A DNA stretch of 64,000 nt from Amphiscolops sp. MND2022 (lineage: Eukaryota): positions 69,442,001 through 69,506,000 of the forward strand of contig OZ076409.1 in assembly GCA_964187785.1 (NCBI GenBank). Direction: 5' to 3'. The notes under the pieces were generated by a model. It was given only the letters and a program-made list of their open reading frames with translations. It searched no databases and was not told the origin of the DNA. Shown one piece after another: positions 16,323 through 52,687 of this stretch (positions within the stretch are counted from its first letter, which is position 1; each line of letters opens with the position of its first letter). Position numbers and translations under genes: made by a program.

Positions 16323-16373
16323 CCCCCCCCATTTCCTCTAGTGCCCCGCGGCCCCTTGGGGCTGCTTATGTTC

Positions 16374-16724
16374 GGGTGGGCGGAAATAGGTCGAAGTAAC
16401 GGGATCGAAAATCAGAGTTAGTCCTCAGGTCGACATACTCTGATTTTTGAATGGGATCGAAACAACTCGGATCGAAATTTTTATAACGTAGTCAGATATG
16501 TTCACATACCCTTAGTGCCCTAAATGCAGGAGCGAAGCGAAGCGGAGCGACGTGCCATTATGGCCATGCCTCAATGTTGCTACTTGGCGAAGGGAGCGAA
16601 GCGACCGAGCCATACAACAAATACGATAAACTTCGACCGCATTCCATTCGATCTCTGCAATTCGATCAAAAGGTTCGACCTCTGTCCTTTCGACCAGAAA
16701 AATTCGACCTATTTACAGCCACCC
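16374..16724 (+). mobile_element. ~350-bp MITE (Mutator-like, 9-bp TSD), copy B
   Basis: TIR GGGTGGGCGGAAATAGGTCGAA / TTCGACCTATTTACAGCCACCC; perfect TSD CTTATGTTC at 16365-16373 and 16725-16733. Confidence 0.8.
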
Positions 16725-19569
16725 CTTATGTTCCCATCTTGCTAAGTGAGGTCGAACAGGTGCAAAGACCTAGGGAGAACGGAGATCGCGAAGCGATCGT
16801 GGTGGAAGCTTGTCTTTGCGACAGTGAGGGCGAGCGTGCCTTCACCATATATGACCCCGTATTAGGTGGGAAAATGTACCTAAAATATTTTAAACGCTTT
16901 GCAGGAGCAAAAACCTTGCAAAAACGGAACAATTCGGTCTCAAAACTTTCGATCCATTTTCGATCTCGCTTTTCGCTCACACATAAATCCGATCCTAAAA
17001 TACCCCACCAAAGTGTTTCACCGTAATACCATGTTGTAAATCGAAAGTTTTTCTTCCGAAAGACCTCTTTTTCTTGAATTTCATCTATTCTACGATAGAA
17101 TGTTTCGTTCTTCGTTGGACTATTCGGCTCCAGGCAAGGCGGGGTGATTGATAGCGCGTCCATGCCCTGCGTTGAACTACTGGAAACATTTTCGTAGTTT
17201 GCGTCGATTTTTAGGATGGCTATCCTTTGGGTGAGTCCAGTGTGAGAATCTTCACATTTTTTGCAGACGAAAATGCTTGTCCATTTTTTCGACAATGGAA
17301 GTCCACTGCACATGACATGGACATAACCACACAGTTATATATTGGTTGTTTTGATCAACTAAATAGGACTTGAGCCACTCAAGACAATTTCCTCCCGGAG
17401 TGCATAGTTTCGATCTAGACCCATATTAGTTCGCATTAAGATTGTTTTGCTCATTAGGAAGTTACAGACTGTTGCAACCTTCAAACACTTGGATATTGTC
17501 CAACGGTGAGCGAGATTTTTACGGCCTGTGTTATCTTATCATGAATCACACCATGACTCGTAAGTATTTGCAGTCATGCCACCTAGACATGGAGATTTGA
17601 TTCATTGATTTATCGGTCTTGAAATTTCATATTTTTTGTATCTGGTAGAAAGATATCTATGCATTTTGATTCTGTCAAAGCAGCTGATTAACTTGCCCGA
17701 TGGACCACAGCTCCAACCTGTCTGAAATTTCGGCAAATTACAGAGCTGCAGAATTCATTTATACACCACGCTTTGTTCAAACCTCCAGTTCGAAATTTGG
17801 AGCTTTATTGCTGCTTCAACGCCATGACATTTTCAAAAGCATAATACTCTGCATGAATCGGATACCATTCAGACTTTAATCCTTTTCAACTAGTGTACAT
17901 TCAGACTTTAATCCATTTAACCTGGTTATTTCAGTTGTGTATGATCATGATGGCTTTTGGTTGCTTTTTGCTTCTCTCGAACACTATGTAATCGGAAAGT
18001 GTTTGGGATAACTCAGCTGCAATCAAATATGGGTGGTGTTATTTACAGTACCTATTTGAGCACAAGAAGTGGTCTTGATGGTTAGACTTAATTTACTTGA
18101 TTGATTTATGCTTAATTTTAACGTCAGCATTGGTGAAAAATATATTGAATCACAGCTGTCGACACTTGCAGCATATCATTTGCATCGGCATAAGATAAGT
18201 GGGCTCAAGTTTCTCAGGAAGCGTTTGTTTGTGCTGCGATTACCCTGCTTGTTAGTAGGCATTTGCATTAAATGTATTTTGTCAAAAGTATCTGCAATAA
18301 ATAATGATTTGCAGCAGTGACAATTATTGCAATATATTGAAAAACAAATCAGAGAAATTATCTTATTCATAACTTGCCATTATTGATGAATTGTTGTTAG
18401 AATTGACAATCGTATTCACCATAGTCATGTTCCAAATGTCTTGGACTGAGTGACTGTTGCATCTCATCAGTGGCATATTCGGCAGTGCTAAAATCTCGTC
18501 AGTTTCGATTTCGGCTTGATTATACTCACAGTAGCAGCTTTTTTAGTGAGATTGCACCCTTCTTTCTTACCCATCGGTATCAAGGTTTGGCACTTTTTTC
18601 AAGGATTCATTTTCAGAATATATATTTAAGTCTTTCTTGGCCTATTGTCTGGGAAATTTTTCATACTGATTTTATCGGGAAAACTTTCGTGGTCATGATA
18701 GACGAAGGGTTTGAAATTTACTTGCAATTTTTTGCAATGTCAGTAACAAGGACCGAAATAAGCCTCGAAAGGACCAATTGTTTGTGAAAGCAAAAACTTT
18801 TCCTGTCCCGAGTTTGATCCCTAAGGCTCTTTGGCACTTTTGGTTTATGCTCAACAGTATATTTTGTTAGAAAATAAGCAAATATTTATAACGGAAAATA
18901 TTTTCTACTCTTATCGATGGCAAGTTTTCGGCGTATTTTCTTGGTTTGAGTGACTGCATAAATTCCTTCTTGGCTTTTTGAAGCTTTCTGACGGCTCCAG
19001 ATGAATTATTTGTTGAATTTTATTACACATTGATGCAAATTACCTCATGACACCTGGAGAGTCATTACATAATCAGACTGTTGACAAAATGATGCAACAT
19101 GGGTTGTAAGCTTCTATCGAATATTTATGGGCTTCTTTTCAGAAGTGGGTGTGCTCGTTGGCACTGCCATGAGAAAGGAAATATGAATTGAAAAATGTCA
19201 TTAAACAATAAACCGATTTTTGTCAGTATTCTGTGAGATAATACATTAGTCTTGCCGTGGTTGGTAGCTGTTGGTTCTTCACCGCAGAATTGATGTCGCC
19301 GTGTGCTGTATAAGTTTTTATCTGAATTGAGCTGAAACTCGGACGGAAACAAAGTCTAGTCTACTGAGGAATCGATATTCATCAGTCATATTTTCAAGTG
19401 GCAACAGAAATAGAATTAACATCTGTCGAAGTTCGTCTCAAGCACAATTGATCGATGCGGAGAATTGAAGGAACATTCGTTTTAGAATCATAAGATTTCG
19501 TGATTTTTTGAGCTTTCTGAACGTTTTTGTCAATTTTCCGAATCAGAGCACCGATTATCAAACTAGGTA

Positions 19570-32285: not shown

Positions 32286-33605
32286 AGGAGTCGGAAAAAA
32301 TTTTCGACTACTTATGCAATCGTGTTTTTTTTCTCCCGACCTTTTCATGAAAATTTCAAATTTCTCAAAAACTGTCCATACGATTTTCACGAAATTTTGC
32401 ACAGTCATTCTACACCCAAAGGGGCCCCTGCGTGTGCAAAGGCATCAAAATCGTATGGCTGGGATGTGAGAAACATAGCCAAAATTAGCCCAAAAATGGC
32501 CAAAAAACAGCCATTTTTCGACTTTTTTCGATTTTCTCAAAAACTGTCCATACGATTCGAACGAAATTTTCTACAGTTATTTTACACCATATTAGAGTCC
32601 TATATGTGCAATGGCATCAAAATCGTATGGCTGGGATGTGAGAAACATAGCCAAAATTAGCCCAAAAATGGCCAAAAAACAGCCATTTTTCGACTTTTTT
32701 CGATTTTCTCAAAAACTGTCCATACGATTCGAACGAAATTTTCTACAGATATTCTACACCATATTAGAGTCCTATATGTGCAATGGCATCAAAATCGTAT
32801 GGCTGGGATGTGAGAAACATAGCCAAAATTAGCCCAAAAATGGCCAAAAAACAGCCATTTTTCGACGTTTTTCGATTTTCTCAAAAACTGTCCATACGAT
32901 TCGAACGAAATTTTCTACAGTTATTTTACACCATATTAGAGTCCTATATGTGCAATGGCATCAAAATCGTATGGCTGGGATGTGAGAAACATAGCCAAAA
33001 TTAGCCCAAAAATGGCCAAAAAACAGCCATTTTTCGACTTTTTTCGATTTTCTCAAAAACTGTCCATACGATTCGAACGAAATTTTCTACAGATATTCTA
33101 CACCATATTAGAGTCCTATATGTGCAATGGCATCAAAATCGTATGGCTGGGATGTGAGAAACATAGCCAAAATTAGCCCAAAAATGGCCAAAAAACAGCC
33201 ATTTTTCGACTTTTTTCGATTTTCTCAAAAACTGTCCATACGATTCGAACGAAATTTTCTACAGTTATTTTACACCATATTAGAGTCCTATATGTGCAAT
33301 GGCATCAAAATCGTATGGCTGGGATGTGAGAAACATAGCCAAAATTAGCCCAAAAATGGCCAAAAAACAGCCATTTTTCGACTTTTTTCGATTTTCTCAA
33401 AAACTGTCCATATGATTCGAACGAAATTTTCTACAGATATTCTACACCATATTAGAGTCCTATATGTGCAATGGCATCAAAATCGTATGGCTGGGATGTG
33501 AGAAACATAGCCAAAATTAGCCCAAAAATGGTCAAAAAAGGGCCATTTTTCGACTTCAGAAAAAAAGACCTAAGCCGACTCCTTTACCGCACATGCGGCT
33601 CTGGT
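32286..33605 (+). mobile_element. Helentron-like non-autonomous element family 1 carrying a central satellite
   Basis: subTIR AGGAGTCGG (32286) / CCGACTCCT (33575), 5' local inverted repeat, 3' hairpin CCGCACATGCGG (33587-33598), T-rich flanks, no TSD. Confidence 0.72.
32350..33556. repeat. 172-bp tandem repeat, ~7 units
   Basis: Near-identical ORF translations recur at 32611, 32783, 32955 and 33127 (period 172). Confidence 0.97.
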
Positions 33606-36600
33606 TTTATAATCGAAACTTTCGTACATTCCGAGAAAAAGTAATTTTTGAAGGTTTAGTAGTTTCAAATCGGAAAATAGGACGCATGTCAAGAGAGCTT
33701 CCCCAGCAAACTATAGCAAGTTTCGAGGAGATTTATCATTCTAGGTTCAAAATACCTTCAGTTTCAATATAACACCATAAAGTCACAATGTGAAGTATAT
33801 AACACACATTCTTTACTGAATCATCACCACTCACTGGATTAACAATGACGAACAAGATGAAAACGTCTAAAGTGGGCGCCCCGCTCAAGGCTCGAAAAAT
33901 CCAAAGGCTCTTTAGAATGCTCAGTGTGGCTAATGGGATATTTTCTTAATTCAGAGTTGTAAAACTATCCGAGGGCGATTTGCTGACTATTTTTCTGGAA
34001 GCCACCCTTGAGTTCTTGAGCACTATTTAATAACAGCTCTTGAGTCCTGAACTGTTGACTAAGACGGTCCTGTATTAAGAAAAATTTTATAACTTGTCGC
34101 TTTTATATTGTATTTTAATAGGAATTTACGGATTAACTATAATCAATCTACTTTATAATGCAGAAGTTAAAAGTACAACAGTGTAGAAAGTACATGACAC
34201 AAGCGGTATCAAGTAATCTGTGGGTGTCACTCCTTAGCAAAAAGTGGCTTAGTGACAGTAAGTTGGAAAAAACGTTCCAGATATATCTTTTTTTTTTGGA
34301 GACAGTATTTGACAAATTATTATTCTGTTTAAGGTAGCAGGGAAAAAATTTGAAGATACAAGAAGACCAGGTGGATTAAATATTCGTATAGAAGAGATGC
34401 CCATATGGTGGATTTTTTGGGGCTCGGGCTTTGCGAGATGCCCATACGGCCGAGTTTTGTTTTTTTTTCGCAAATTTCGTGACCTGCCCACTTTTCAAAC
34501 TTGAGGCATAGTTCTCAAAACCCGGAATGTGGTCGCGGCGGTTAATTGGATTTGGCGCGCGTCGTCGAAAAGCATGCCTACGGACGGTGGGCGTCAATCT
34601 TTGAGTTGAAAGAACTTAAGGTTTCTTTACGTACAGGTTTTACTTGATTTAGTCTAGTGGCAGAACGTAACTTTCTACGAGATGACCTGTTTAGAAAAAA
34701 AAACAATTTTCGGACTGGCAGTTGTTTTGTTTGCGATTACAGATTCGTAAATTACCGTTGCCTTATTAAAGATAGTCGAGCTAGGTACAGGATAACCGTA
34801 AAAATTAAAAATGACAGAAAAAATAATTTGAATGACAGCTAAAATCACATACAGCGCAATTATAGTAGAGTGTGAGTTATTCAATTTTTCTTTTCGTTCA
34901 AGGTAATCGCAAATTAGTTTCCCACGCAACTCAATGACAGACTAAATGAACGGAAATTATCAACATAACGTTTTCTCGAGCTATTCATATCCAGCACTGG
35001 CATGGTCTTTCGAAACTGTACCTGTATCAAACCTTCCAATTTTTTGCAAGTTTCAATGCTATTGAGAAATGACAAGAGGAAACAACTTTTTCGTAATTTG
35101 AAGATTTGGTCGATATGGCACTTGGAGTCACCAGAAACCAACTTGTGTCAAACGTTGAGGTTCCAACTTTTCAGCTCGAAAGTGTCTGAGAAATAACTCT
35201 GATAAATTTTGTCTAGTTATTTAGTTTACAGTGTAAAATCATTTCTATTGATCCGATCGTCGTTGAGAATTTCATCGTGTTTTATCTTTCAAGCCAATTC
35301 GAGCATTTATAGTTCAACTTGGAAGCCATCGGGGTAGTTCATTTACACTGTGGAATCAACTTAAAACTGTGAAAAAATTGCCAAGCGTTGCGGGAAGATT
35401 GAGAACGTGGCTGCACATGCTTTCGTTTTCCAGGTTGGAAATACACTGTGCATCAAAAAGGTGGTGCTCTGTGTGAAATCTGAAATCATGCCTTATAGAA
35501 AACTCTGGTTCTCTCAAATTTGGAAAGATTGAAAAAGTTTTTCCTCTACGTTTTAGACGCTTTAAAAGTACAATTGTTCGTTGTTTTTAACTGGCTGTCA
35601 CGCTTTATCACTATTCCAACAGAAAAATTGAAATGACAGAAATATGTTTTTAGGGGCATGCTCTTAGCATAAATTTTGGATAGATTGATTTGCGTTTTTA
35701 GGTTGCTTTTGAAGTAGGAAGGAAAATGAGGCTGTCATTGTTTATCACAACCAATTTGAAGCGTTTTGGTGACAATTTTCACAATATCATGCTTGTCTTT
35801 CTTCGCAAAAAGCTGATGTTAAACATTTTGTAATCAACGATGAAATGAAGATATTGTCGAGAAAGGAACCATGAATGCCAATCGCACTGGCTACTTTTTC
35901 AACTAGTTCAGCATGTATTCTGGCCACTAAACATTGTCCAATGGTAACGCATTATAAGAAAATTTATACCCTAATTAGAAACTTTCTTGTTAGTTCCAAA
36001 TTGTATCATCAACTTGTCTTGAATTACAATGTAAAACAGCCCGATCAATGTGTCAAAAACACATTGAATTGCACGTTTTGCGGAGAACGTTGAAATTCTT
36101 ATCGGAAGTAAATTTTCTTGGACGCCTGGAAGTCGAAACCAGAAACTTAACGAGTTTCATGTATTCGGAGAATCTGTAGGACATTATGTTGGCTGATTTA
36201 AAATATTTTTATTACGCCGGAGGATCATGCATGTAATACTATTACATGGAGATGAAATTTTCTCCCAGGTTACAACACTTCATGACAAGCAGAATTTATT
36301 GCTTAGATTGATTCTCAGCAACAATTGTGGAATAAAAAAACTTTCGGATTTGAACCATGTAACCGTCAAATATCATGAAGGAGACAATTACCCACATTTC
36401 GGGTCGTCTATTATGTATCGGGACTTTTAAAACACATGTTCCAAAACATTGAGCTAGTTTTAAAGTTGACCTACAGCATCCGATGAGCAGTTCCTACGCT
36501 TTCATGGCAGAAAAAGCGTTTATAATGGAACTAAAAAAGTTTTCTATTCAAAAATAGCCAATCCCGGTCCAATTCGTATTCTGAACGAAATGTTATCAAT

Positions 36601-39232: not shown

Positions 39233-39664
39233 AGTAGTATGCGAATTCCCGATTCGGACCAGCAAAACCATCAAATTTAGCCATTTTTTCAAAAAAAATC
39301 GATAAAATTGGTGTTTTTTCACTACTAAAAAAATTGTCAGGTTAATCAAACCATCAAAATTAGATATTTTTTCAAAAAAAATCGATAAAATTGGTGTTTT
39401 TTCACTACTAAAAAATTTTTTAATTAATTCGGGCCAGTCAAATATTTTTTAAAAAAAATGTTGATTATTTTTGAAAAAAATCAACGTTTTTTTCACAACT
39501 AACTGTTAAAAAATAACCAAAGTAAAAATTAGGTATTTTTCACAACTGAAAAATTAACAAAATTGATGAAAAATAACTATTAAATGAATTATTTATCATT
39601 CAAAGAATTTGTTAATAACTATGGATTAAAAAATGAAGCAACTTCCAATGTAGAAATAAAAGAA
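39233..39664 (+). repeat. Polinton left TIR (~432 bp)
   Basis: Reverse complement of 52257-52687 with a few mismatches; contains an internal ~80-bp direct repeat. Confidence 0.93.
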
Positions 39665-39736
39665 TTTTTCACTAATTTTTGAAAAATATTTAATGAAAAT
39701 TTTTTAATTAAACTATTTTTTCCTTAATAAATAGTA

Positions 39737-42700
39737 ATGGAGAATTGTAGTATTTGTAATTTAAATTATAAAAAAGTTTTCAAGTCTGATCATTTAAAAT
39801 CAGTAAAGCATCTTGAAAAATTAGATCAATATTATTGTAAAAAATGTAATTTATTTATGCCCTTATCAGATAAAATTTCTCATTTAAGTTCAGATGAACA
39901 TAAAAATAAAACCGAACAACGACGTGTTTGGTGTGAAGATTGTAGTAAATTTATATCTGATACAACAAGACATTTCCAAAGTGAAATTCATTTACAAAAC
40001 CGTCAACGGGAAAACATGCAAAATTTCGGTAATGGAGTAGAAATAATTATGAATGAAAATACATACATTAAACTTGAAATAAGTCCAACTAGTAATCTCG
40101 AAGATCATATAAATGAATTACTTAGTAAAAATTATTTTCCCCGATATAAATATCAATTGAGTTATCTAGCTAAATTTTCAAAAATAGTTAATGGAGAAGA
40201 AGAAGTATTTATAAAATGGATAAAATCAGATCTAATGAATAACAATATACAACCAGATACTCATAACACATTAATGCAGAAATTAGATGATGAACAATTA
40301 GAAGGATCAGGTTTTGTGTTTCAAGAAATAGAAGAAGTTATTTTAGAAATATATAAAGTTAATGATATTCAAGTTTCATCATATATTGAATTACCAGGAA
40401 AATATAAGGATAATAAATCAATCATAAATATAAAGAATAATGATCAATATTGTTTTTTATGGTGTATTTTAGCCCAGTTGTATCCAGTTGAGAATCATAA
40501 AGATAGAATATCAAAATATATTATTCATTTAAATAAACTCAACCTGAAAGGATTAGAGTTCCCTATGAAAGTTAAAGATATTCCCAAGTTCGAAAACTTA
40601 AATAATTTAAATATAAATGTATTTGAACTCACTGGAAATGTTTTAACACCAATCCACGTTAACAAAAATTACTTACAACCACAAATAGATTTATTATTAT
40701 ATCAAAATCACTATTGTTTAATAACAAAGCTGCATTGTTTAATAAATAAAGATTCACATATGAAACATGTATGTAGAAGATGTTTAACAGCATTTAGTTC
40801 ACAACCAGTTCTAATTGATCATATAGATCGTTGTCAAAAACAGCAACCAACTGAAATCACATTCAGTTGGAAGGATCAGTTAAAGTTCGAAGATTATCAT
40901 ATGAAAGTCCCTCGACCAATAAGAGTATATGCAGGTTTTGAATGTATCAATCAACCTCAAAATACCCCCAACGTGTTATTCAAACAAATTCCAATTGCAG
41001 TAGGATATTATGTAATTTCACCATTCGGAAATTATTACTATTCATACTTTGGAATAGATTGTACCAAGTGGTTTGTAAATAGAATGTTAACTTTAGAAAA
41101 AATTGCATCAAAATATTTTAAAACAAATTTAGAATTAGAAATGAGTCAAGAAGAAGAAGAAGTACAATTTGAACAAGCAGAAGAGTGTTGGCTTTGTGAA
41201 AATCCACTCGATGATACTAAGGTTAGAGATCATGATCATCTAACAGGAAAATACAGAGGTGCAGCTCATAATATATGTAACATCAATTGTAAACAAAAGT
41301 CATCAAGTTTTGTTCCTATATTTTTCCATAACTTTTCTGGGTATGATTGTCATCTTATATTTGAAGAACTTGTAACCGAAGCATACAATCAAAGTTATAA
41401 TCCAACGATAATTCCAAAATCACTGGAAAATTATGTTAGTGTACAAGTAGGTTGTTTGAGATTCTTAGATTCATACCGATTTCTTTCTTCCAGTTTAAAT
41501 AAATTAGTTAAGAGTTTAGACAATTTTCCTATCATGAAATTGGAAGGAATGAGTGATGATTTATTCAAAAAGAAATTAGCTTATCCTTATGAATACTTAA
41601 ATCTTGATAACTTTCAGGAACCATTAAATCTAACCAAAGAAGATTATTGGTCAACATTAACACAATCTTATCCATCAGATGATGATACAAAAAGAACCCA
41701 AGAACTAATTGATAAAAATAAAATTGAAAATGGAAGAGAATTAACAATGTTATATTTAAAAATGGATGTTCTTCAATTAGCTGATGTATTCGAAAACTTT
41801 GTGAAAAGTTCTACACGAGAATATAAAATTGATCCTTTGTATATTTACTCTCTACCTGGTTATACATGGAAAGCAGGTTTGAAGTTGACTGATATAAAGT
41901 TAGACTTCATAAAAGATAAAAACCTACTGCTACTACTTGAAAATAATATCCGTGGAGGAATTTCAAGTGTAATGGGAGATCGTCACGTGCAATCTGATGA
42001 AAATAAACAAATCTTATATATCGATGCAAATAATCTATATGGATGGGCAATGAGTCAAAATCTTCCTACTGGCGAATTCGAAATATTACCTCTTAATCCG
42101 TGTAATTACACAGATAATTACAATCTAGAGCAATTAGTAGAAGATTTATTACAAATACCTGATGATAATGAATATGGATTCTTTATAGAATGTGATTTAG
42201 AATATCCTGTTGAAATTAAAGAAAAAACAAAAAACTTTCCTTTTTGTCCGTATCAAACAAAAGCAGATCCAAACTTATTCTCAGGTTATATGAATAATAT
42301 AAATCAACCTAATTACAAACCAACATCAAAACTTATGTGTGATGTAACCAATAAATCGAAATTTATGATACATTATAGGATGTTTAAGTTTTATCTTAAC
42401 CAAGGGATGAAAGTAACGAAGATACATACTATCTATAAGTTTAAACAAAGTCCATGGTTAGGTAAATATATCGATCATAATACTCAGAAACGCACAGTAG
42501 CGAAAACAAACTTTGAAAAGGATCTTTATAAATTAATGAATAATGCTTTCTTTGGGAAGACTATGGAAAATGTAAGAGATAGAACCAATCTAGAATTCAT
42601 TGATCATTCTCAAATAGATCAAATAATAAAAAGACAATCCAAGTTAAGTTTCAAAGGTATTGTGGATCATTATTCTAAGTTTAGTGTGTACAAGTTTGAT

Positions 42701-43483
42701 AAAGAAAAAACAGTCTTTGATAAACCAATTTATTTAGGTTTTACAGTTTTAGAACTATCAAAACTATTAATGTATGAATTTTATTATAACAAATTACAAC
42801 CATATTGGAAACAATCCATACAACTACACTACATGGACACTGATAGTTTTATTCTGAGTTTTGATACAAACCACCAAGAACTAATAAACTTTTTACAAGG
42901 AAACAAAGATGAATTTGATTTCAGTGAATTACACCCAAGTGATGAATTATATGATCCTATTAACAAAAAAGTTATAGGAAAAATGAAAATTGAAACAAGT
43001 CCAGTTTTGGTGTTAGATACCTTCACGGCATTGCGATCAAAGTCATATTCTTTTAGTTACAATAACATTCAAAAAGCGAAACAAAAAGGAATACAAAATG
43101 CTCCCAAATGTGAACACTACAAAAATTCATTGTTTAATTCAGAAACATCAAGTTCTACAAATATATCAATTAGATCTAATTTACACAACCTTACAGTTGA
43201 AAAACAAAACAAACTAGCTTTGAATCCTTTTGACGATAAACGTTTGTATATAAATCCAATACAAAGTTTACCATGGGACAAACACACTCAAAAAGGCGAT
43301 TGCCCTTGTATATATTGTTTGAAATTAATTGGTTTGTATTATAAAGAATTAACTATAAATGTTGACGGTAGCAAGAAAACAGATGAAGAAATTTATTTCA
43401 ATGTTTGGTATTGGAAACAAGCACTCACCCATCAACAAATTGTGAAGTTGATAAGTGATCGAGCACATGTTTTAGAAAAATAA
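39737..43483 (+). CDS. polB: Protein-primed family B DNA polymerase (pPolB) polyprotein with N-terminal Zn fingers, OTU-like domain and inserted EndoVII/HNH-like domain
   Basis: YIDANNLYG, KLMNNAFFGK, YMDTDS; exonuclease FHNFSGYD and FLDSYRF; CWLC...RDHDHLTGKYRGAAHNICN. Confidence 0.96.
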   Translation: MENCSICNLNYKKVFKSDHLKSVKHLEKLDQYYCKKCNLFMPLSDKISHLSSDEHKNKTEQRRVWCEDCSKFISDTTRHFQSEIHLQNRQRENMQNFGNGVEIIMNENTYIKLEISPTSNLEDHINELLSKNYFPRYKYQLSYLAKFSKIVNGEEEVFIKWIKSDLMNNNIQPDTHNTLMQKLDDEQLEGSGFVFQEIEEVILEIYKVNDIQVSSYIELPGKYKDNKSIINIKNNDQYCFLWCILAQLYPVENHKDRISKYIIHLNKLNLKGLEFPMKVKDIPKFENLNNLNINVFELTGNVLTPIHVNKNYLQPQIDLLLYQNHYCLITKLHCLINKDSHMKHVCRRCLTAFSSQPVLIDHIDRCQKQQPTEITFSWKDQLKFEDYHMKVPRPIRVYAGFECINQPQNTPNVLFKQIPIAVGYYVISPFGNYYYSYFGIDCTKWFVNRMLTLEKIASKYFKTNLELEMSQEEEEVQFEQAEECWLCENPLDDTKVRDHDHLTGKYRGAAHNICNINCKQKSSSFVPIFFHNFSGYDCHLIFEELVTEAYNQSYNPTIIPKSLENYVSVQVGCLRFLDSYRFLSSSLNKLVKSLDNFPIMKLEGMSDDLFKKKLAYPYEYLNLDNFQEPLNLTKEDYWSTLTQSYPSDDDTKRTQELIDKNKIENGRELTMLYLKMDVLQLADVFENFVKSSTREYKIDPLYIYSLPGYTWKAGLKLTDIKLDFIKDKNLLLLLENNIRGGISSVMGDRHVQSDENKQILYIDANNLYGWAMSQNLPTGEFEILPLNPCNYTDNYNLEQLVEDLLQIPDDNEYGFFIECDLEYPVEIKEKTKNFPFCPYQTKADPNLFSGYMNNINQPNYKPTSKLMCDVTNKSKFMIHYRMFKFYLNQGMKVTKIHTIYKFKQSPWLGKYIDHNTQKRTVAKTNFEKDLYKLMNNAFFGKTMENVRDRTNLEFIDHSQIDQIIKRQSKLSFKGIVDHYSKFSVYKFDKEKTVFDKPIYLGFTVLELSKLLMYEFYYNKLQPYWKQSIQLHYMDTDSFILSFDTNHQELINFLQGNKDEFDFSELHPSDELYDPINKKVIGKMKIETSPVLVLDTFTALRSKSYSFSYNNIQKAKQKGIQNAPKCEHYKNSLFNSETSSSTNISIRSNLHNLTVEKQNKLALNPFDDKRLYINPIQSLPWDKHTQKGDCPCIYCLKLIGLYYKELTINVDGSKKTDEEIYFNVWYWKQALTHQQIVKLISDRAHVLEK

Positions 43484-43575
43484 ATATATTATTTTATAAT
43501 TATTTTTATTTATAAAAATAAATTTTTTTATGATATCAGCAGAGCTGTATTATTATATATTTAAATTTTATTTAT

Positions 43576-44805
43576 TCATAATAAATCAAAATGCCTTTGT
43601 CCATCACTACTGATACTTATCAGTTTAGGTGTTAGGACTAGGGCATAAGCTATATAGTCTGCTACATCAATGGCAGTATTAAATTTGAATTCTAATCTAA
43701 TAGGTTGACTCCCGATGGGGTCTTTTTGTTTGGATAAATCAAATACATAGAAATTATAATTTGTCCTGAATTTATGCAAATCAATAAATGGATTGAGTAG
43801 GTTAGTTTCACTTTTTAACAAATAGAAGTTTTCAATTTCACTGTATGCTTGATCATATTTATCTCTATCATAATCACATTCTATTCCATCATCTGGATTT
43901 TTTTCTGATCCTATTTTACAAACTGCATTTGAAACAGGTAATCTATCAAATATTGCATTATCATGTGTTTGTGAATCAATTTTATTTCTAGCTTGAAATC
44001 CAACAATTATAAAACTTGGTGTTGATTCTCCACTATTACCTAATTCAAATGTCCAATTGTTATTCGTGTTAACATCTTTTCTAAATACAATCCGTTCCAT
44101 GTAATATAATTCAGTTGGATCTTTGTCTAATATTTGATCCATCACGAGTTGTTGGTTTTCCATTGATGGTGTGTAGTGTGGAATATACCAGGAGATGTCT
44201 TTTATATTTATTTTTGCAGCATCCACACCATTGTCCCTGATAATAGGATCATTATTATTATTACGTTTTAATGTGAGACTGTAACCCAATCCATAAGTTA
44301 TTTTTTCTTGATCAGCGGATCCAAATATATCAGTTAATTTTATTCTCACAAAAAAGGTTCCTTTCTCTGTTTTATTATTTGTTAGTTCTTGTCTTCTAGT
44401 TGCTTGTGGTTCTTCAAATCCGTACATCAATTGACTTGTTTGTTGATTAGATGTTAAAAGTTTATACATCAATGAAATTGGGTGTAGATTATCAACTTTT
44501 TCTAAATGTTTACCTGAACTAGTAGTTAACTTAGCTTCACTAAATAAAGCAACGGGTCCAAAGTTGACCAAGCTTATTTGATCACTATCTGCATAACTTG
44601 TATCATCATTTTTAAGAACTTCAAATTCTAATGATATATATGAGTTTTGTAAACAAATATATGCATCTTCTCTTGGGAAGATGATGGAAATATTTGAATT
44701 ATTATTGTTGATTGTAGCTAAACTACTAGGTGAGTAGTTAATAAAATCAATTTTATGAGTAGGTTTATCCATAGCATATTTATTTTTCAATGAGAATAAT
44801 TCCAT
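43576..44805 (-). CDS. Major capsid protein (double jelly-roll)
   Basis: 409 aa, beta-rich; motifs PSFIIVGFQ and FYVFDLSKQ...IRLEFKF...AYALV resemble Polinton MCP ends; Polinton context. Confidence 0.8.
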   Translation of the reverse strand: MELFSLKNKYAMDKPTHKIDFINYSPSSLATINNNNSNISIIFPREDAYICLQNSYISLEFEVLKNDDTSYADSDQISLVNFGPVALFSEAKLTTSSGKHLEKVDNLHPISLMYKLLTSNQQTSQLMYGFEEPQATRRQELTNNKTEKGTFFVRIKLTDIFGSADQEKITYGLGYSLTLKRNNNNDPIIRDNGVDAAKINIKDISWYIPHYTPSMENQQLVMDQILDKDPTELYYMERIVFRKDVNTNNNWTFELGNSGESTPSFIIVGFQARNKIDSQTHDNAIFDRLPVSNAVCKIGSEKNPDDGIECDYDRDKYDQAYSEIENFYLLKSETNLLNPFIDLHKFRTNYNFYVFDLSKQKDPIGSQPIRLEFKFNTAIDVADYIAYALVLTPKLISISSDGQRHFDLL

Positions 44806-44873
44806 TTTTTAAAGAATAAATATTCATGATGATAATTTAAAATTTATATTTATATTATTTTTACCAAATAAAT

Positions 44874-45395
44874 TTATCCTAAAAAAGTAAACTCAGAATT
44901 TAGTTTAGTTTTATTGTTTTTATACACATCGTAAGTTTGTTTTAATTTGTTGTATTCATTCAGATCAATTTTATTGTCTTCTAAACATTTTGAATGTAGT
45001 TTTTGGTAGTCGTGTAGTGTTGTACCAGCAAGAGTATATTTTTTAGTATTGTGTTGTTCTTTTCTTTTCAGGTACTCTCCAGCAATTTTACTGATTATAC
45101 ATAAACCTGCACCTATACGACTTGCTATAGGCACAACAACAAGTCCAACTCCTGTGACACTCAACGTGACACAAGTTGATGATACTGCTAGTACTGAAAC
45201 TCCATCAATAGATTGAATTAAATCGTTTATAATTTTATATGTTTTAGATTTCTTTTTATACTTTTTAGCTTCATGATTATAAAAATTTTGAATATCTTTT
45301 ATATTTTGAATTGAATTATTAAAACTATTTATTTCTTCCAATCGCATATCAAGATTATCCGATTCACGTAAACAAGGATACAATTTTTCACTCAT
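44874..45395 (-). CDS. Conserved Polinton membrane protein (PW-like) with a Gly/Val-rich hydrophobic hairpin
   Basis: GVSVLAVSSTCVTLSVTGVGLVVVPIASRIGAGLCII followed by SKCLEDNKIDLNEY. Confidence 0.6.
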   Translation of the reverse strand: MSEKLYPCLRESDNLDMRLEEINSFNNSIQNIKDIQNFYNHEAKKYKKKSKTYKIINDLIQSIDGVSVLAVSSTCVTLSVTGVGLVVVPIASRIGAGLCIISKIAGEYLKRKEQHNTKKYTLAGTTLHDYQKLHSKCLEDNKIDLNEYNKLKQTYDVYKNNKTKLNSEFTFLG

Positions 45396-45419
45396 TTAAT
45401 TTTAAATAAAAACTTAATT

Positions 45420-46130
45420 TTAGTTTTCAAAAAGTATGAAATTTATCTCAGTATCGGTTAGTTTCATTCTATATTTAAGGTCAACTATATCTTTGTATTC
45501 ATCTTTCTTTAAGCACTTCACGATATCTTCTCGCGTTGAATAGTCTAAATCAGATAAATAATACACACCATCTGATGTCTTTATTTCTGTTCCGTATTTT
45601 TCCCACAAGTATTCATCACTAAAATATAAGTACTCATTAAAGATTTGGTCTTTATTTTCAAATGAGTCAAACAATCCTTTGTTGTATAGTAATTGAATAG
45701 TATCTTTGACTGCTTGATTTTTACATTTTTCCAATTCCAAAATAAGGTTTCTCTCAAAATGATTACGTAAAATGGTTTGTTGTTCTTCCACTAACTCGGC
45801 AGCATCCAAAATTATTTCTTTTTTCTTTTTTAAAAATTTATTTTTAATATCTTGTTCTAAATACTTTAAATTTATTTTTATATCTTCTATACTCTTGTTA
45901 ATGTCTAAGAATAACTTTGCATTGACTACGATTTGTGTTTCACCGTTGTCAAATATAATTTCTTGTAGGTTACCGAAGGTGCTTTGCATATCAAAATTTT
46001 CTAAAGTATTAGACAAATCATTAAGTTTTATGTTGATTAATTTGGTTTGTGATTCCAATTCTTTTTCTAAATTCTCAATCTTATCTTTTTGTAAGCTTTC
46101 GGCACTATAACCAAATTTATGAATTGACAT
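45420..46130 (-). CDS. Hypothetical coiled-coil protein
   Basis: 236-aa intact ORF in a tightly packed gene array; heptad-like L/I/K/E pattern. Confidence 0.65.
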   Translation of the reverse strand: MSIHKFGYSAESLQKDKIENLEKELESQTKLINIKLNDLSNTLENFDMQSTFGNLQEIIFDNGETQIVVNAKLFLDINKSIEDIKINLKYLEQDIKNKFLKKKKEIILDAAELVEEQQTILRNHFERNLILELEKCKNQAVKDTIQLLYNKGLFDSFENKDQIFNEYLYFSDEYLWEKYGTEIKTSDGVYYLSDLDYSTREDIVKCLKKDEYKDIVDLKYRMKLTDTEINFILFEN

Positions 46131-46147
46131 TATTTATTTAAATATAT

Positions 46148-47002
46148 TTACTCACTTTGATGGAAAATATTCATACTTTCTAACGTTTTGTTGTTAGATT
46201 TGAAATTGAATACACTTCCTAAAAGTTCTTGTTCATAATATTTTCCTTCTATTTGTTCGTTGTTTTCATCTACTAAACCATACGTAACTGGGTTAGTTGG
46301 AATAATTTTATGTATTTTAAAAAGTTCTCTATTCCAATTTGTTGTATAACCTTTACTATATAAATTGCGTTTATCAGGAACTCTTACATAGTCTCCCACT
46401 TGAAATTTGGGTTGTTTCGGTTTATTAACAAAAGTAGGTGGATCTATTGGTTGATTATTAGCTTCAAAAGGTGTCATTTTGGTTGTGGTATGGACACGAT
46501 TATTATATTTTTCCACAGCAGCATCAAGATGATTCAACCAGTTACCTTTACCTTCAATGTACATTGGTTTTTTCATTAGATCTAATAAGGTTCTATTGAA
46601 TCGTTCAACAAAAACAGCTTTCAAATCTGAGTGAGTTGAATAAATTTGTATTTCATTTTGTTTAAGAAAATCCAAAAATGTTTTATTATAAAACTCTTTA
46701 CCTCTATCTGACCATATTTTATCCGGTTTTCTTTTTGTTTTTTCGATAAGACTTTTAAATGCATTTGTTGTACTTTTTCCTGATTTATCTTCAAGAGGAA
46801 TGGCCCATGCGTATTTAGTATGATTGTCAATTTTTGTAAAAATGAACTTGTAGTTTTTGTTGTATTTTGATAAGCTAGACCTGTCTATCAGATCGATACT
46901 CCAACATTCATCTTTATAATGAGGAATTATTTTAATGCGATCAAACTTTTTAATTACAGGAGAAAATATTTCTTTAGCAATTTCTTTCTTCTTTTCACTC
47001 AT
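46148..47002 (-). CDS. Retroviral-like DDE integrase (Polinton type)
   Basis: WSIDLID, IWSDRGKEF, VERFNRTL, YNNRVH, KFQVGDYVRV...GYTTNW. Confidence 0.95.
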   Translation of the reverse strand: MSEKKKEIAKEIFSPVIKKFDRIKIIPHYKDECWSIDLIDRSSLSKYNKNYKFIFTKIDNHTKYAWAIPLEDKSGKSTTNAFKSLIEKTKRKPDKIWSDRGKEFYNKTFLDFLKQNEIQIYSTHSDLKAVFVERFNRTLLDLMKKPMYIEGKGNWLNHLDAAVEKYNNRVHTTTKMTPFEANNQPIDPPTFVNKPKQPKFQVGDYVRVPDKRNLYSKGYTTNWNRELFKIHKIIPTNPVTYGLVDENNEQIEGKYYEQELLGSVFNFKSNNKTLESMNIFHQSE

Positions 47003-47016
47003 TTATTTCTTAATAA

Positions 47017-48027
47017 TTGAATAAAAAATTATATATAGGTTTATTATGTGTAATTTTTATTATAGTTTTATATATTTATTGGTATTATATTAGACCTAGA
47101 CATTACGAAAAATTATACCAAAAACTAGAACAATTCAAGGGATTTAAATATTCTCATTTAACTAACAAAGAAGAAGAACAAGAAATTACTCCACCAAACA
47201 CAAGTACAAATAGTCACTTTTTAATATATGGTACTAGTGGATCAGGTAAGACTAGTTTCCTTAAGTATTATTTAGATCAAACTAAAACAAATTTTATAGT
47301 ATTCGGTAGAGATGAAAATGAGTTTAAAGATAATTATATACCTTTGTTACAGTTAGAAAATATTGAAATAGAGAAACTTGCTAATAGAACTATAATTTTA
47401 GATGATGCAGGAGCATTCAAACAACTCAGAACTAAAGTAGAAGACTTATTTCGGTTTGGTAGACACAATAATATACAAGTTATATACCTTGCTCACTATG
47501 CAAAAGATGTTCTCCCAATAGTGAGAGAGAATTGTTTTAAATTATATATCACAATAAATAATCCAGATAGTTTCTTTGAAACCATAATACAAACTTATTC
47601 AATCAAAGAAGATCTTAAATGGAAACAATATCGTAGTCAGTTAGAATTTGGTGTAATTGAATTTGATACTAGATCACAAAAGTATAAAATACTCAATCAA
47701 AAGTATCAACTAATCTACGATACAACTAAACATAAATGGAGTCCTGAAGATTATGTAAAATATGAAAGTTATTTCTTTACAGGTGAAGAATACAACAAAC
47801 TCAAGGTGTTTTTAGAAGATACGTCAGATCAAACAATTGAAATAACACCTTTTAATGTAGCTTTTTATTATGTATATTTTTGTAAACAAAATAAAATCAA
47901 AGTAAATGAATCTAAAATAGACAACTACGTTGAACGCATGCAACAACCACTAATTTCAAATCAACTTAAAGAGGAATTTAAGAAAATTATAATTGATCAA
48001 GCAATCAGGTTTAGTAAAAGTAATTAA
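47017..48027 (+). CDS. A32/FtsK-like ATPase 1 with an N-terminal transmembrane helix (starts at TTG, no ATG)
   Basis: LYIGLLCVIFIIVLYIYWYYI; Walker A GTSGSGKT; Walker B IILDD; GRH; VRENC. Confidence 0.85.
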   Translation: MNKKLYIGLLCVIFIIVLYIYWYYIRPRHYEKLYQKLEQFKGFKYSHLTNKEEEQEITPPNTSTNSHFLIYGTSGSGKTSFLKYYLDQTKTNFIVFGRDENEFKDNYIPLLQLENIEIEKLANRTIILDDAGAFKQLRTKVEDLFRFGRHNNIQVIYLAHYAKDVLPIVRENCFKLYITINNPDSFFETIIQTYSIKEDLKWKQYRSQLEFGVIEFDTRSQKYKILNQKYQLIYDTTKHKWSPEDYVKYESYFFTGEEYNKLKVFLEDTSDQTIEITPFNVAFYYVYFCKQNKIKVNESKIDNYVERMQQPLISNQLKEEFKKIIIDQAIRFSKSN

Positions 48028-48170
48028 AAAATGGGTCTGATTTCTTAGTAAAAAATCACTAAGCAAATTCACTAAGAGCATATATTTTTCACTAAGCAAA
48101 TAAGGTTACACTTAAAACATCATGCTCTTAGTGAATTTGCTTAGTGATTTAGTGATTTTTTACTAAATAA

Positions 48171-49239
48171 ATGAAGTGTTTAATTTGTGGAAAAAGTAAT
48201 GAAAAATCTGTCTGCTCCGATTGTCAGAATAAAAAAAAGATGTAAAGTGTGTAATATACTGAAAACAGATTTTTACAATTATAAAATTGGTAAAATGTGT
48301 AGTACAAGTATAGAATGTTTCAATAAAAAAGTAAAATGTGAATTCTGTAATAAAGAATTAAAAAAAATTTATTTATCAAAACATTTAAAAAGATGTATTA
48401 TCAATCATGATAATAATAATTACACAAATAATGAAATTATAAATCATAATGAAAATCATGATAATAATAGTTATACAAATAATGAAATTATAAATCATAA
48501 TGAAAATTATGATAATAATAATTATACAAATAATGAAATTATAAATCATAATGAAAATTATGATGATATTAATTATACAAATAATATCATTACAAATGAT
48601 AATAATGATAATATTGATACAGCTACGCTGGCTTTGCATAACAATTGTAATAGGACATTGATAGTTGGCCCATCATTTTGTGGTAAGACTCATTTGTTGT
48701 TGAATAAATTACGATTGATTCGTTTGGAAGATCCAGAGAAACAAATTCGTATCATTACAAGGAGTCTGGAACAATATGAGGATGTGAAACTAGATTTAGA
48801 ACTAGGAGATATTGAAGTGGAAGAAAATGTGGGGGATTTGGATGAGTATAGGGGGTGTTGTGTAGTATTTGATGATATGTTAGACTCCAACCAGAAAATG
48901 ATTGATCCATTTTTTACTAGGGGAAGGCACAAATCTTGTGATGTTTATTATTTATGTCAGAGTTATTTTGATGCACCAAAAAAGACAGTTAGAAACAATA
49001 GTAATATCATAATTTTATTTCAACAAACACTGATAGATGTAGAACACATTTATAGAGATATTGCTGGTTTTGATATGTCTTATGATGAATTCAAAAGTTT
49101 ATGCAGAGAAGCATGGCGGGATACGTATAATTATTTATTAATAAATAGGTTAGAAGATAAAAATGGGAGTAAGTATATGATTTGTAATGAATCCAATCTG
49201 CAATACCAGATATTTAATCCACAAACTGATCCTTTTTAG
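48171..49239 (+). CDS. A32/FtsK-like packaging ATPase 2 with N-terminal Zn fingers and Asn-rich repeats; one-base frameshift in the A8 tract at 48231-48238
   Basis: GPSFCGKT, VVFDD, GRH, YLCQ, VRNN; upstream frame MKCLICGKSNEKSVCSDCQNKK joins RCKVC if one A is removed. Confidence 0.88.
48404..48585 (+). repeat. 51-bp coding minisatellite (17 aa NHDNNSYTNNEIINHNE, ~3.5 copies)
   Basis: Visible directly in DNA and protein. Confidence 0.9.
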
Positions 49240-50194
49240 TAAAAGCTGAAAGAATGTTTTGATGTTGATTTGTTGTAATACATTGGTATTGTAAAAGTTT
49301 ATCTGCAATTGCTATGATTTGTTCACTAAGCATAGGATTATCATTTCCTCCTACTTTTTCAAAATAGAGTAGTTTTAATTGATCTACAAGCTCATCAGGA
49401 TCCGATGGAAGGAAGACATACTGATTAAATCCACTTCCTAATTGGGATAGTTGATAAGGAATATGTTGATGTATGTATTGATTAATTAAATCTTTAATGA
49501 AATAATATCTCTTTGGTTTTTTATCTCCATAATTTATATTATATTTCATATCATTTAAAAAAGAATAAATTAGATTCACGTTTTGTGGTTGCGTGTCTAG
49601 CTGTGCATTAGTTATAAAATATGAAAGATCCGGATCCTTTAAATTATATTTGTTACCACTACTCAAGAAGGTTAGTGTATTATTTTTAATTAGTACTTGT
49701 TGAGGATTAATAGGGTTAATTATGAATAAATTTGGATTACCTTCACCGAAGGCGCTTTGCGTAACAGGTTCTAAACTAAATTGACTTTTGTTTTTGTCAT
49801 TAAGCAAATTAGAAACTGTCTTGATTATAGTAGAATCAACTTGGTTGGAATTCACAAGATCTGTAACAAGTTGATTATTACGGTAAGTAATTTCATCATA
49901 TTCTTTAATCGATTTTTGTAAATTTTTATTCAAAACGTTACTCGATTCTCGTATTGCTTGTGTTGTAGTTTGAGTAGAATCACGTAACGCTTGTAATTGT
50001 TTTTCAGATTCTAGCTTGGTTTGGTTTTGACTTTTTTTCTGATTTCCAGTAACAGGTTCAAAAACTTCTTCCATATCGTAATGAAAGTCTTGCTTCCCTA
50101 GTTTCTCTTTTAATCTTTCAGCTTTCAAAGAAGATTTTGTTTCTTGCAATTTTTTTAATTTCTCTAAATCATCTCGATTATGAATTGAATACAT
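49214..50194 (-). CDS. Conserved Polinton protein of unknown function (coiled coil + C-terminal helical motif)
   Basis: C-terminal LGSG...LPSDPDELVDQLKLL...GGNDN...IIAIADKLL motif recalled from Polinton ORFs. Confidence 0.65.
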   Translation of the reverse strand: MYSIHNRDDLEKLKKLQETKSSLKAERLKEKLGKQDFHYDMEEVFEPVTGNQKKSQNQTKLESEKQLQALRDSTQTTTQAIRESSNVLNKNLQKSIKEYDEITYRNNQLVTDLVNSNQVDSTIIKTVSNLLNDKNKSQFSLEPVTQSAFGEGNPNLFIINPINPQQVLIKNNTLTFLSSGNKYNLKDPDLSYFITNAQLDTQPQNVNLIYSFLNDMKYNINYGDKKPKRYYFIKDLINQYIHQHIPYQLSQLGSGFNQYVFLPSDPDELVDQLKLLYFEKVGGNDNPMLSEQIIAIADKLLQYQCITTNQHQNILSAFTKKDQFVD

Positions 50195-50253
50195 ATTTTT
50201 TTATTCATAAAAAATAATATTTAATTTACAGCAAGGCTGTAAATCAATGAATT

Positions 50254-50613
50254 TTACCTAAATACAGGCCTTTTCCTTGCGGCTATCATTCGAGGATTTT
50301 TACTTGCTGCTGCTGTACCAATATTAGCTGCGAGTTCTAATGCTCTTCCAGGATTGTTTAAAATTTTCTTTCCGACACTCTTGGCGGCTTTTCCTATACC
50401 TCGGAAAAAGTCACCTAATCCTTCTGCTTGTATAGTTTGATCAGATACTATAGGTGAATTATTTCTTTTACAAGTTGAACAAGTACCTCTTAATAATTTA
50501 ACAGGTGCTCCAGTTTTTTTATTTTGAGTAATATCTCCACGAATATTTGTGGTAGCGGAATAATGTTTTCCACCAACACAATATGAATTATTTTTAAATT
50601 TATTAAAGCTCAT
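50254..50613 (-). CDS. Small basic virion core/membrane-active protein candidate
   Basis: Zn-ribbon-like YCV...RGTCSTC, then EG|LGDFFRGIGKAAKSVGKKIL amphipathic helix. Confidence 0.6.
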   Translation of the reverse strand: MSFNKFKNNSYCVGGKHYSATTNIRGDITQNKKTGAPVKLLRGTCSTCKRNNSPIVSDQTIQAEGLGDFFRGIGKAAKSVGKKILNNPGRALELAANIGTAAASKNPRMIAARKRPVFR

Positions 50614-50701
50614 TTATTAGAAAAAAAATATTCATTTTTTCTTCAGCACAAACTTTCAGTTTGCAAACTTTTAGTTTGTAAACCTTTGGTTTGTATATAT
50701 A

Positions 50702-51747
50702 TTAAATCTTGATGATTTGAATTGCAAATGTTAATGTCTCCCCGTTGAAATCAACTGGGTTATGATTGTTATCCTCAAGGAAAAATTGAATACTATCTAA
50801 CCTTGTTTTGTTTATTTTTTATACAGAATAATATTGGGTTCTTTTATAATTTTATATCCGGGAGGAGCACTAAGATTATATGAAAATAAAATTTGTTCTC
50901 GTATACCATTAACAATTGAACCATCTACACAATCACACTTAAGATGAACTTTGTCTGTCGTTGTTATCATAACTGGTTTTTCTGATATATGAGTTCCCGC
51001 TGGATATTCCTTGTTTGTAAACCCTAAAAGTTTATTTAATTCTGAATTAAAATATATACCACTAGCAGTTGTTAAAACTGATTTCATTGATATTGTATCT
51101 GCTTCTATGTTGAGTTTAAAGTCAGAACTACCACCAGGTAAAGTACAACATTTAATAAGTTCTTGCTGGATAGTATTATTTATATCAACTAATTCATATG
51201 ATCCTGGTGGTAGTTCTATTTCAATGGAATCAGTTACAGATCCAATTCCAGAAATAACAATTGGTTTATCTTTAATGTGCAAAGCACCTTCGGTATTCTG
51301 ATTAATTTGATCAATTATTTTCATCAAATAATCATAATCTGTTTTAGTAATAGTCTTAATTTCAGCATTATCATTAACTATAAGTTTTTTAATTTTTTCT
51401 ATATCACCAGAGGTTTTATATAAATACTCAACATTTGTTACTAATTGAGTGTCAACATCATTTTCTTTTAACATTTTTTCTGTATAAAGAAGTTTAAATT
51501 TATTGTTCTTCTCAGTAATGTTATAAACTGTATTATATACTTCTAAACTTGTTACTCCCATCATCCATTGTTCTGGCAGCTCCCAGGGAACATCGAATGA
51601 AAAAGATTCTTTTTGTTTGTTCATTTTAAATTCTAAAGTTTCTTGTAGTTTGGATAAGGTATTTTCAACAATATCTAAATTAGATTTTGCAATACTCAAT
51701 AAAAGAGATTCTTTTTTATCATAGGTTACAAAATTTGATAGATCCAT
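50702..51747 (-). CDS. Minor capsid protein (penton); one-base frameshift at the T6 tract 50815-50820
   Basis: ELPPGSYE, LNKLLGF, HLKCDCVDGS, PPGYKI; alternative frame continues INKTRLDSIQFFLEDNNHNPVDFNGETLTFAIQIIKI*, a typical penton C-terminus. Confidence 0.85.
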
Positions 51748-51750
51748 TTA

Positions 51751-51933
51751 TTAAACGAAAAATTGTTTAAATCCACTTGCAGAAATCTTATTTATGAATT
51801 CTTGGTTTTGTTTTGATAATTTCTTTTTTTGATTATTTTTTTGTATTATTTTCTCATCAAATTGATTCTCATTGGTATTCATTGGTTTTTGAATAATTTT
51901 AATTTGAGCTGAATAATTATTAATTTTCTTCAT
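51751..51933 (-). CDS. Small basic hypothetical protein (60 aa)
   Basis: Fills the gap between protease and penton exactly; TAAATG start; ends with a possible ASG|F cleavage-like site. Confidence 0.5.
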   Translation of the reverse strand: MKKINNYSAQIKIIQKPMNTNENQFDEKIIQKNNQKKKLSKQNQEFINKISASGFKQFFV

Positions 51934-51940
51934 TTAGGAA

Positions 51941-52336
51941 TTATAAATTTTGGTAGTATAAATTTAAAACTGCATTTTTGAAGCCTATAATTTGTGTGAG
52001 ATACAACACATACAAACAATACGCCGCACAATAACTGTCGTCTTTCTGGATTTGATATTCTGAATAAATACCATTATTAATTTGTTTTGTTATATTTAGT
52101 GGTGGTGGACAGCCATATGAATCGAAATAGTTTTGGTTTGTAAACAAAACCCAATGTGTTCCTTTAGTTGGATGTAAGTTAACTATACCACTGGTGGTTA
52201 TAAATTTATCATCTCTCATATATATTCCACAAGATGTGTTCATGAGTTTTAAGATTTCTTTTATTTCTACATTGGAAGTTGCTTCATTTTTTAATCCATA
52301 GTTATTAACAAATTCTTTGAATGATAAATAATACAT
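51941..52336 (-). CDS. Adenain-like cysteine maturation protease
   Basis: GTHWV (His), YFDSYG (Asp), QIQ...YCAAYC (Gln, Cys). Confidence 0.92.
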   Translation of the reverse strand: MYYLSFKEFVNNYGLKNEATSNVEIKEILKLMNTSCGIYMRDDKFITTSGIVNLHPTKGTHWVLFTNQNYFDSYGCPPPLNITKQINNGIYSEYQIQKDDSYCAAYCLYVLYLTQIIGFKNAVLNLYYQNL

Positions 52337-52687
52337 TTAATAGTTATTTTTCATCAATTTTGTTAATTTTTCAGTTGTGAAAAATAACTAATTTTTACTT
52401 TGGTTATTTTTTAACAGTTAGTTGTGAAAAAAACGTTGATTTTTTTCAAAAATAATCAACATTTTTTTTAAAAAAATATTTGACTGGCCCGAATTAATTT
52501 AAAAAATTTTTAGTAGTGAAAAAACACCAATTTTATCGATTTTTTTGAAAAATATCTAATTTTGATGGTTTGATTAACCTGTCAAATTTTTTTTAGTAGT
52601 GAAAAAACACCAATTTTATCGATTTTTTTGAAAAAATGGCTAAATTTGATGGTTTGGCTGGTCCGAATCGGGAATTCGCATACTACT
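52257..52687 (-). repeat. Polinton right TIR
   Basis: Reverse complement of the left TIR; overlaps the first ~27 codons of the protease. Confidence 0.93.

Follow-up and report, generated by a model that had tools for sequence, protein, structure and literature searches.

A Polinton lineage in the genome of Amphiscolops sp. MND2022 carries two adjacent genes for A32/FtsK-HerA-type ATPases, and both genes are real, under selection and intact in their catalytic residues. One of the products, ATPase 1, is predicted to be anchored in a membrane and, as far as sequence comparison can tell, is an old enzyme additional to the usual one; a Polinton lineage with such an extra A32-type ATPase is what appears to be new here. 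These features suggest that the particles of this lineage are likely built or released by way of a membrane step, which we have not found described for Polintons.

The window (the whole stretch of DNA that was analysed, 64,000 nucleotides) contains one Polinton of 13,455 bp with 27% GC (positions 39233-52687). It has terminal inverted repeats beginning AGTAGT, or (AGT)2, and a 6-bp target duplication, CTCCAG. The element shows the Polinton hallmarks of an rve integrase and double jelly-roll capsid matches (Pfam). The retroviral-type integrase (rve, 3.7e-12) is encoded on the minus strand at 46148-47002, divergently oriented to ATPase 1, and a Pfam match to PF21738 (6.5e-19) lies on the same strand at 43576-44805. 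We take the 1248-aa product of 39737-43483 (plus strand) to be a family B DNA polymerase on the basis of its motifs. On the minus strand, 50812-51747 encodes a probable minor capsid protein (named by position) and 51941-52336 a probable maturation cysteine protease (named from a motif). These three ORFs are conserved in sister copies and gave no family match in Pfam, the polymerase ORF matching only endonuclease VII, weakly. Two further minus-strand genes encode a 173-aa protein with a hydrophobic segment (44874-45395), homologues of which also occur in single-ATPase Polintons, and a 326-aa conserved protein (49214-50194), which in sister families has its homologue next to the sole ATPase. Outside the Polinton, positions 14179-17768 and 32327-33685 of the window hold a foldback-like element, made up of a 723-bp inverted repeat pair (98%) with nested hairpins, and a 172-bp tandem array.

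Both ATPase genes are on the plus strand, and their frames lie 171 bp apart. ATPase 1 (47017-48027) is 336 aa from stop to stop and matches PF04665 with 27.9 bits (cut-off 22.8); ATPase 2 (48171-49239) has an open frame of 346 aa at 48199-49239, with homology starting at 48171. A preliminary description of this DNA had reported two adjacent, co-oriented ORFs that each carry Walker A, Walker B, GRH and R-x-N motifs and are otherwise dissimilar, and this was confirmed: the motifs are GTSGSGKT, IILDD, GRH, YLAH and R-x-N in ATPase 1 and GPSFCGKT, VVFDD, GRH, YLCQ and R-x-N in ATPase 2, so that the reported difference between His and Gln at the sensor position (YLAH versus YLCQ) is also correct. 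The two proteins share 25% identity over 104 aa (E-value: 0.003), and profile-profile comparison related them with a probability of 97.5 (E-value: 6e-12). ATPase 1 matches both the FtsK-HerA fold and the A32 profile. It also has each feature by which the FtsK-HerA family is defined in the part of PMC11703096 that we drew on, namely Walker A, Walker B, an arginine finger and a polar sensor residue (here His).

ATPase 1 consists of an N-terminal hydrophobic helix (residues 7-25), a basic helix, an A32-type core (residues ~65-237) and a five-helix C-terminal domain. The hydrophobic helix of about 20 aa and the C-terminal extension of about 100 aa had both been noticed previously, and both were borne out. 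The helix has a Kyte-Doolittle value of 2.40 per 19 residues, compared with 0.63 for the rest of ATPase 1 and 0.76 for ATPase 2. Two Lys/Arg residues precede it and six follow it. According to the positive-inside rule, the flank rich in Lys and Arg marks the cytosolic side of a membrane segment. ATPase 1 is predicted to be a single-pass anchored protein with its motor on the cytosolic or nucleoplasmic side.

The structural model of ATPase 1 (pLDDT 68) begins with a long N-terminal helix, which a loose linker joins to the core, and ends in a helical tail. The fold of ATPase 1 is closest to that of a viral packaging ATPase: the best match to the modelled core was B204, the packaging ATPase of STIV2 (Z 14.0, rmsd 3.0, 164 aligned, E-value: 1.2e-6), followed by HerA and VirB4 (Z 12.4), TcpA (12.1), Zot (11.2), FtsK (10.9) and TrwB (9.8), with a gap of only 1.6 in Z between B204 and the cellular translocases. 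The nearest viral-library models and Atlas clusters were A32-like packaging ATPases. When modelled alone, the tail formed five helices (pLDDT 82), for which the fold search gave no match (best Z 3.6; best E-value 1.4), a result that need not mean a new fold. A PDB sequence search yielded P-loop matches only.

ATPase 2 is built from a Cys-rich N-terminal domain, an Asn-rich repeat linker and a canonical Polinton ATPase core. The Cys-rich domain, which is probably zinc-binding, and the variable repeat linker span window positions 48171-48640; the sole ATPases of sister families lack the domain. In the window copy ATPase 2 is frameshifted near 48232-48239, close to its 5' end (the Cys-rich domain starts at 48171), and ATPase 1 has no initiation codon, its first in-frame Met being residue 308, while 67 of 70 sisters start with Met. 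The 119-aa and 311-aa ORFs (window 50254-51747) are shorter than those of several sisters (133-172 and 335-358 aa, respectively), and the window copy may be broken there as well. Because this copy is damaged in both ATPase genes, our argument rests on sister copies.

In the 1.07-Gb genome, where only the best candidates were scored, ATPase 1 was found at full length in at least 120 places with 87-100% identity (subfamily A) and in at least 103 places about 65% away (subfamily B). Seventy places of subfamily A and 50 of subfamily B were fetched by means of ATPase 1, a sampling that favours intact copies of this gene. ATPase 2 was located within 1.5 kb downstream of ATPase 1 in 69/70 subfamily A and 48/50 subfamily B copies (117/120 in all). 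To remove the sampling bias, copies were also chosen through other genes: ATPase 1 was covered to at least 80% in 28 of the top 30 copies chosen by ATPase 2 and in 19 of 20 chosen by the 326-aa gene (every sixth of 123 copies). Four zero values for ATPase 2 in this second survey were a filter artefact, those places matching a complete natural ATPase 2 at 96-98%. One copy (L270, G000:C13:38602400-38607000) has lost nearly all of ATPase 1 and kept the integrase and ATPase 2. Gene order around the pair is conserved in ten 20-kb stretches, except for moved 173-aa and 236-aa genes, and capsid, protease and polymerase genes adjoin the pair in both subfamilies.

Purifying selection acts on ATPase 1 as it does on ATPase 2 and the integrase. 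Pairwise dN/dS values were obtained from 300 random pairs per class, drawn only from copies whose reading frame is continuous across 90% of the query. The comparison between subfamilies gave 0.15 for ATPase 1, 0.19 for the integrase and 0.21 for the core of ATPase 2. Within ATPase 1, variants common to at least four copies gave 0.12-0.17 and private variants, which include the stops, gave 0.54-0.60. By region, the values were 0.10-0.23 for the core, 0.14-0.15 for the C-terminal domain and 0.6-0.7 for the hydrophobic helix. The Walker A Lys and Thr, the Asp pair, RH, the sensor His and R-x-N are retained in 118-120 of 120 copies. At the N-terminus, all 120 have a hydrophobic 19-mer. The survey of sister copies proposed in the preliminary description thus found ATPase 1 persisting beside ATPase 2 and constrained, with neither the loss or neutral decay of the gene nor the lack of conservation of the hydrophobic segment that would have spoken against the initial reading.

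The ATPase 2 core of the window copy (48640-49236) is mostly 80-89% identical to subfamily B and 75-79% identical to 58 of 69 subfamily A sisters, and the remaining genes of this copy are of subfamily A. Since its ATPase 2 core is nearer to subfamily B than to the subfamily A sisters, the window copy is likely a recombinant.

Other Polinton families in the genome were located by a PF04665 search. No second ATPase was detected with the ATPase 1 profile in any of 14 single-ATPase stretches of 20-30 kb, and two more sister-family stretches had one P-loop ORF each. The capsid proteins of these single-ATPase Polintons are homologous to those of the window element (23-46%), and the nearest family also has the capsid, protease, 326-aa, 119-aa and 173-aa genes in common with it. 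As sister Polintons with homologous capsids have one ATPase, ATPase 1 is unnecessary for Polinton packaging in general. The sole ATPase of the nearest family is 30-35% identical to ATPase 2 and shares its C-terminal end and its neighbour gene. The genome holds at least six distinct Polinton-type ATPase groups in hundreds of near-intact copies, with His as the majority state of the sensor. Repeat-bounded elements of 15.5-19 kb (L190-L191-L210, L211-L192-L193, L212-L194-L195 and L223-L224) have an integrase, capsids, a protease and one ATPase, with no match to the window polymerase and about 5 kb beyond the integrase unassigned; a relative (L208-L214) has the polymerase, and the replication gene of the elements without it was possibly swapped.

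A tree of 31 ATPase cores, with named reference sequences left out, placed the 20 ATPase 1 sequences on one side of a branch (100/98) and joined ATPase 2 to the sole Polinton ATPases (92/88, below the starred level); the lone giant-virus-like sequence formed a long branch. Its position beside the sole ATPases of sister Polintons makes ATPase 2 the likely packaging motor, the one that fills capsids, as had been proposed. Judged by this tree, ATPase 1 appears to be a separate clade of long standing rather than a recent duplicate, and a single clade of ATPase 1 and ATPase 2 is also compatible with the data (p-AU 0.135). Two earlier suggestions were not supported. The His of ATPase 1 had been read as a sign of new function; this was rejected, as His also occurs in six of the tree's seven sole Polinton ATPases and is therefore an ordinary residue here. 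The membrane protein at 44874-45395 had been put forward as a possible partner of ATPase 1, and its homologues were found in 7 of 11 single-ATPase stretches of the nearest family. Since the 173-aa protein also occurs without ATPase 1, a specific link between the two is not supported, and no other candidate for a dedicated channel or partner gained with ATPase 1 was seen.

Relatives of ATPase 1 also exist beyond this genome. A first protein search gave 350 matches, and the 120 listed had 62-94% identity; these probably come from the same species, as the one that was tested (P0086) was 100% identical to a sequence in the source genome. A profile search gave 303 proteins with an E-value ≤ 0.001 (150 listed), and a further search added four. 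From these, 20 distant long relatives with 26-52% identity where aligned were picked; they lie on short ENA, JGI and Logan contigs, and two that were tested against the source genome had best matches of only 51% and 38%. Among the distant relatives, longer stretches surround P0409 (28 kb) and P0150 (7.7 kb). A hydrophobic segment (Kyte-Doolittle 2.3-3.7) precedes Walker A by 34-74 residues in 19/20 of them, the sensor His is present in 20/20 and the C-terminal domain in most. A metagenome scan found two ATPase 1-type loci (L062/L063), on contigs of 3.3 and 1.3 kb that are too short to show a second ATPase or its absence. Like Polintons, each locus is AT-rich or Cys-rich, and a Cys-rich ORF adjoins its ATPase; these neighbours scored above 500/500 shuffles against the N-terminus of ATPase 2. 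A specific module of ATPase 1 and a zinc domain was considered and rejected, similar-looking Cys-rich ORFs being present in single-ATPase elements too. Scans of viral contigs found no ATPase 1 locus, only one unrelated A32-like gene (20%) on a 295-kb contig, and no locus for canonical ATPases; phage records gave no match, and no RNA source was listed, which does not bear on expression.

A tentative explanation for these observations, which we favour at somewhat less than even chances, is that ATPase 1 acts in particle assembly or exit, at a step linked to a membrane. We favour it because the capsid module is kept, the core belongs to the packaging type, and a single helix that evolves fast is better suited to anchoring than to forming a channel; a dN/dS of 0.6-0.7 fits a plain anchor, not a channel wall. 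ATPase 2 would then be an ordinary capsid-filling motor. ATPase 1 would be tethered to the membrane by its one N-terminal helix and, as its family suggests, would act as a ring-forming, ATP-hydrolysing, DNA-engaging motor that docks the genome or the filling capsid on a host membrane, leading either to packaging at the membrane or to envelopment. It would thus join in one chain what PRD1 divides among soluble P9 and the membrane proteins P20 and P22. Against this reading, the sister families appear to manage without ATPase 1, a particle membrane or envelope would have to be assumed, and no other membrane protein gained together with ATPase 1 was found in the element.

ATPase 1 could instead be a capsid-independent pump that carries the naked linear genome through a membrane from one compartment or cell to another, in the manner of TraB, coupling proteins or inovirus pI. 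This follows the main proposal of the preliminary description. An N-terminal anchor, a linker and a motor are the layout of FtsK in the portion of PMC11703096 used here, the fold scores of HerA, VirB4, TcpA, Zot, FtsK and TrwB come close behind that of B204, and the copy number is very high (at least 120 and at least 103 full-length places). However, the single fast-evolving helix comes without a lumenal domain or a dedicated channel partner (the 173-aa protein being found in single-ATPase elements as well), single-ATPase families are abundant in the genome too, and the sequence profile is that of A32, not FtsK or TrwB; we consider such a pump unlikely. The same holds for the view that ATPase 1 is now no DNA motor, having become a membrane ATPase for remodelling membranes or host proteins (in egress, exclusion of rival elements or host modulation) by way of a C-terminal domain unique to it. 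That domain is constrained like the core, folds alone and is retained in distant relatives, and an accessory role fits the absence from sister families, but both arginine motifs and the complete packaging-ATPase core have been kept, and beyond the P-loop there is no likeness to known remodelling ATPases. It is quite improbable that ATPase 1 was the sole motor of another membrane-using virus lineage, captured by a Polinton with both ATPases then kept, perhaps as a mixed two-subunit motor. ATPase 1 does form its own clade (100/98) with its deepest members outside the source genome, and the two distant contigs show no second ATPase; contigs of this length cannot reveal an absence, the ATPase neighbours on them are Cys-rich proteins resembling those of the source genome's Polintons, and ATPase 2 is still fully selected. 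A redundant recent duplicate in decay is very improbable. The window copy lacks an initiation codon and 13 of 70 subfamily A copies have a stop in ATPase 1, but the stops are private, as in other genes, shared variants are strongly purified, and ATPase 1 has only 25% identity to ATPase 2 and conserved relatives at 26-52%. Neutral decay is refuted by the purifying dN/dS values together with retention of the helix in distant relatives.

A bolder reading, which we regard as rather unlikely, is that a widespread, undescribed Polinton clade has two DNA motors: a soluble one for filling the capsid and another, anchored in a eukaryotic membrane, that packages the genome through this membrane or pumps it across. 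Such elements would have a membrane-bound particle or could pass from cell to cell without a capsid. Polinton virions are unobserved, and envelopment has been put forward only for those nematode elements that have a fusogen, according to the portion of bioRxiv 2023.08.22.554363 that covers this point. Our literature search found no description of a two-ATPase Polinton, which had been named earlier as a finding that would undercut the idea; subscription papers, Repbase and preprint supplements lay outside its scope and may hold one. A second or membrane-anchored Polinton ATPase goes unmentioned in the passages covered of PMC8502044, PMC11131425, PMC4028283, PMC8097293, PMC11071308, PMC11071296, PMC7617512, PMC11703096, PMC4267777 and bioRxiv 2023.08.22.554363, 2022.05.25.493380, 2025.04.19.649669 and 2026.06.19.733378. 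ATPase 1 is one of about 11 genes in 13.5 kb and is retained across 26% identity, and it names a testable protein that bears on how animal Polintons leave the nucleus or cell and on the membrane attachment of DNA motors in the Polinton virus lineage. Two non-orthologous genes can become mixed up in marker surveys that count a single ATPase for each element.

Like the A32-like packaging ATPase (PF04665) of Polintons/Mavericks (adintoviruses), ATPase 1 and ATPase 2 have an A32-type core and motifs. Those elements have one ATPase each in the sections consulted of PMC4028283, PMC8097293 and PMC8502044, whereas the lineage described here has a second with a predicted membrane helix and an extra C-terminal domain; ATPase 2 differs by its fused Cys-rich domain. 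The supplementary map of PMC8502044, in the part seen, has one FtsK label per map row (two matches), and duplicate capsid genes are reported for some adintoviruses in an excerpt of PMC11071296. The best fold match to ATPase 1, STIV2 B204 (Z 14.0), belongs with PRD1 P9 to viruses with an internal membrane. ATPases of this type act at a membrane vertex, and PRD1 packaging requires a membrane-embedded conduit (PMC4267777, in the text available). B204 and P9 are soluble, with P20 and P22 as separate membrane proteins, whereas ATPase 1 is predicted to carry its own anchor and has a second ATPase beside it. A membrane segment joined to the motor, as in FtsK/TraB translocases, is present in ATPase 1 by hydropathy and is a helix in the model. 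In inoviruses, the membrane anchor follows the ATPase domain, and the pI/Zot, FtsK, TrwB/TcpA and TraB ATPases need channel partners or several helices. These systems combine a membrane segment with an FtsK-HerA motor (PMC11703096, in the part covering them), as predicted for ATPase 1 (fold Z 9.8-12.1), but they are prokaryotic, and ATPase 1 is A32-like by profile. Adenovirus IVa2 was not among the listed fold matches of ATPase 1, and the sensor His is no sign of kinship with it, because His is also present in sole Polinton ATPases of the genome. Giant viruses (Medusavirus, Mimiviridae) are represented in the viral fold list by several A32-like genes from each genome, whereas the window element has its pair, with the catalytic set intact, in 13.5 kb and about 11 genes.
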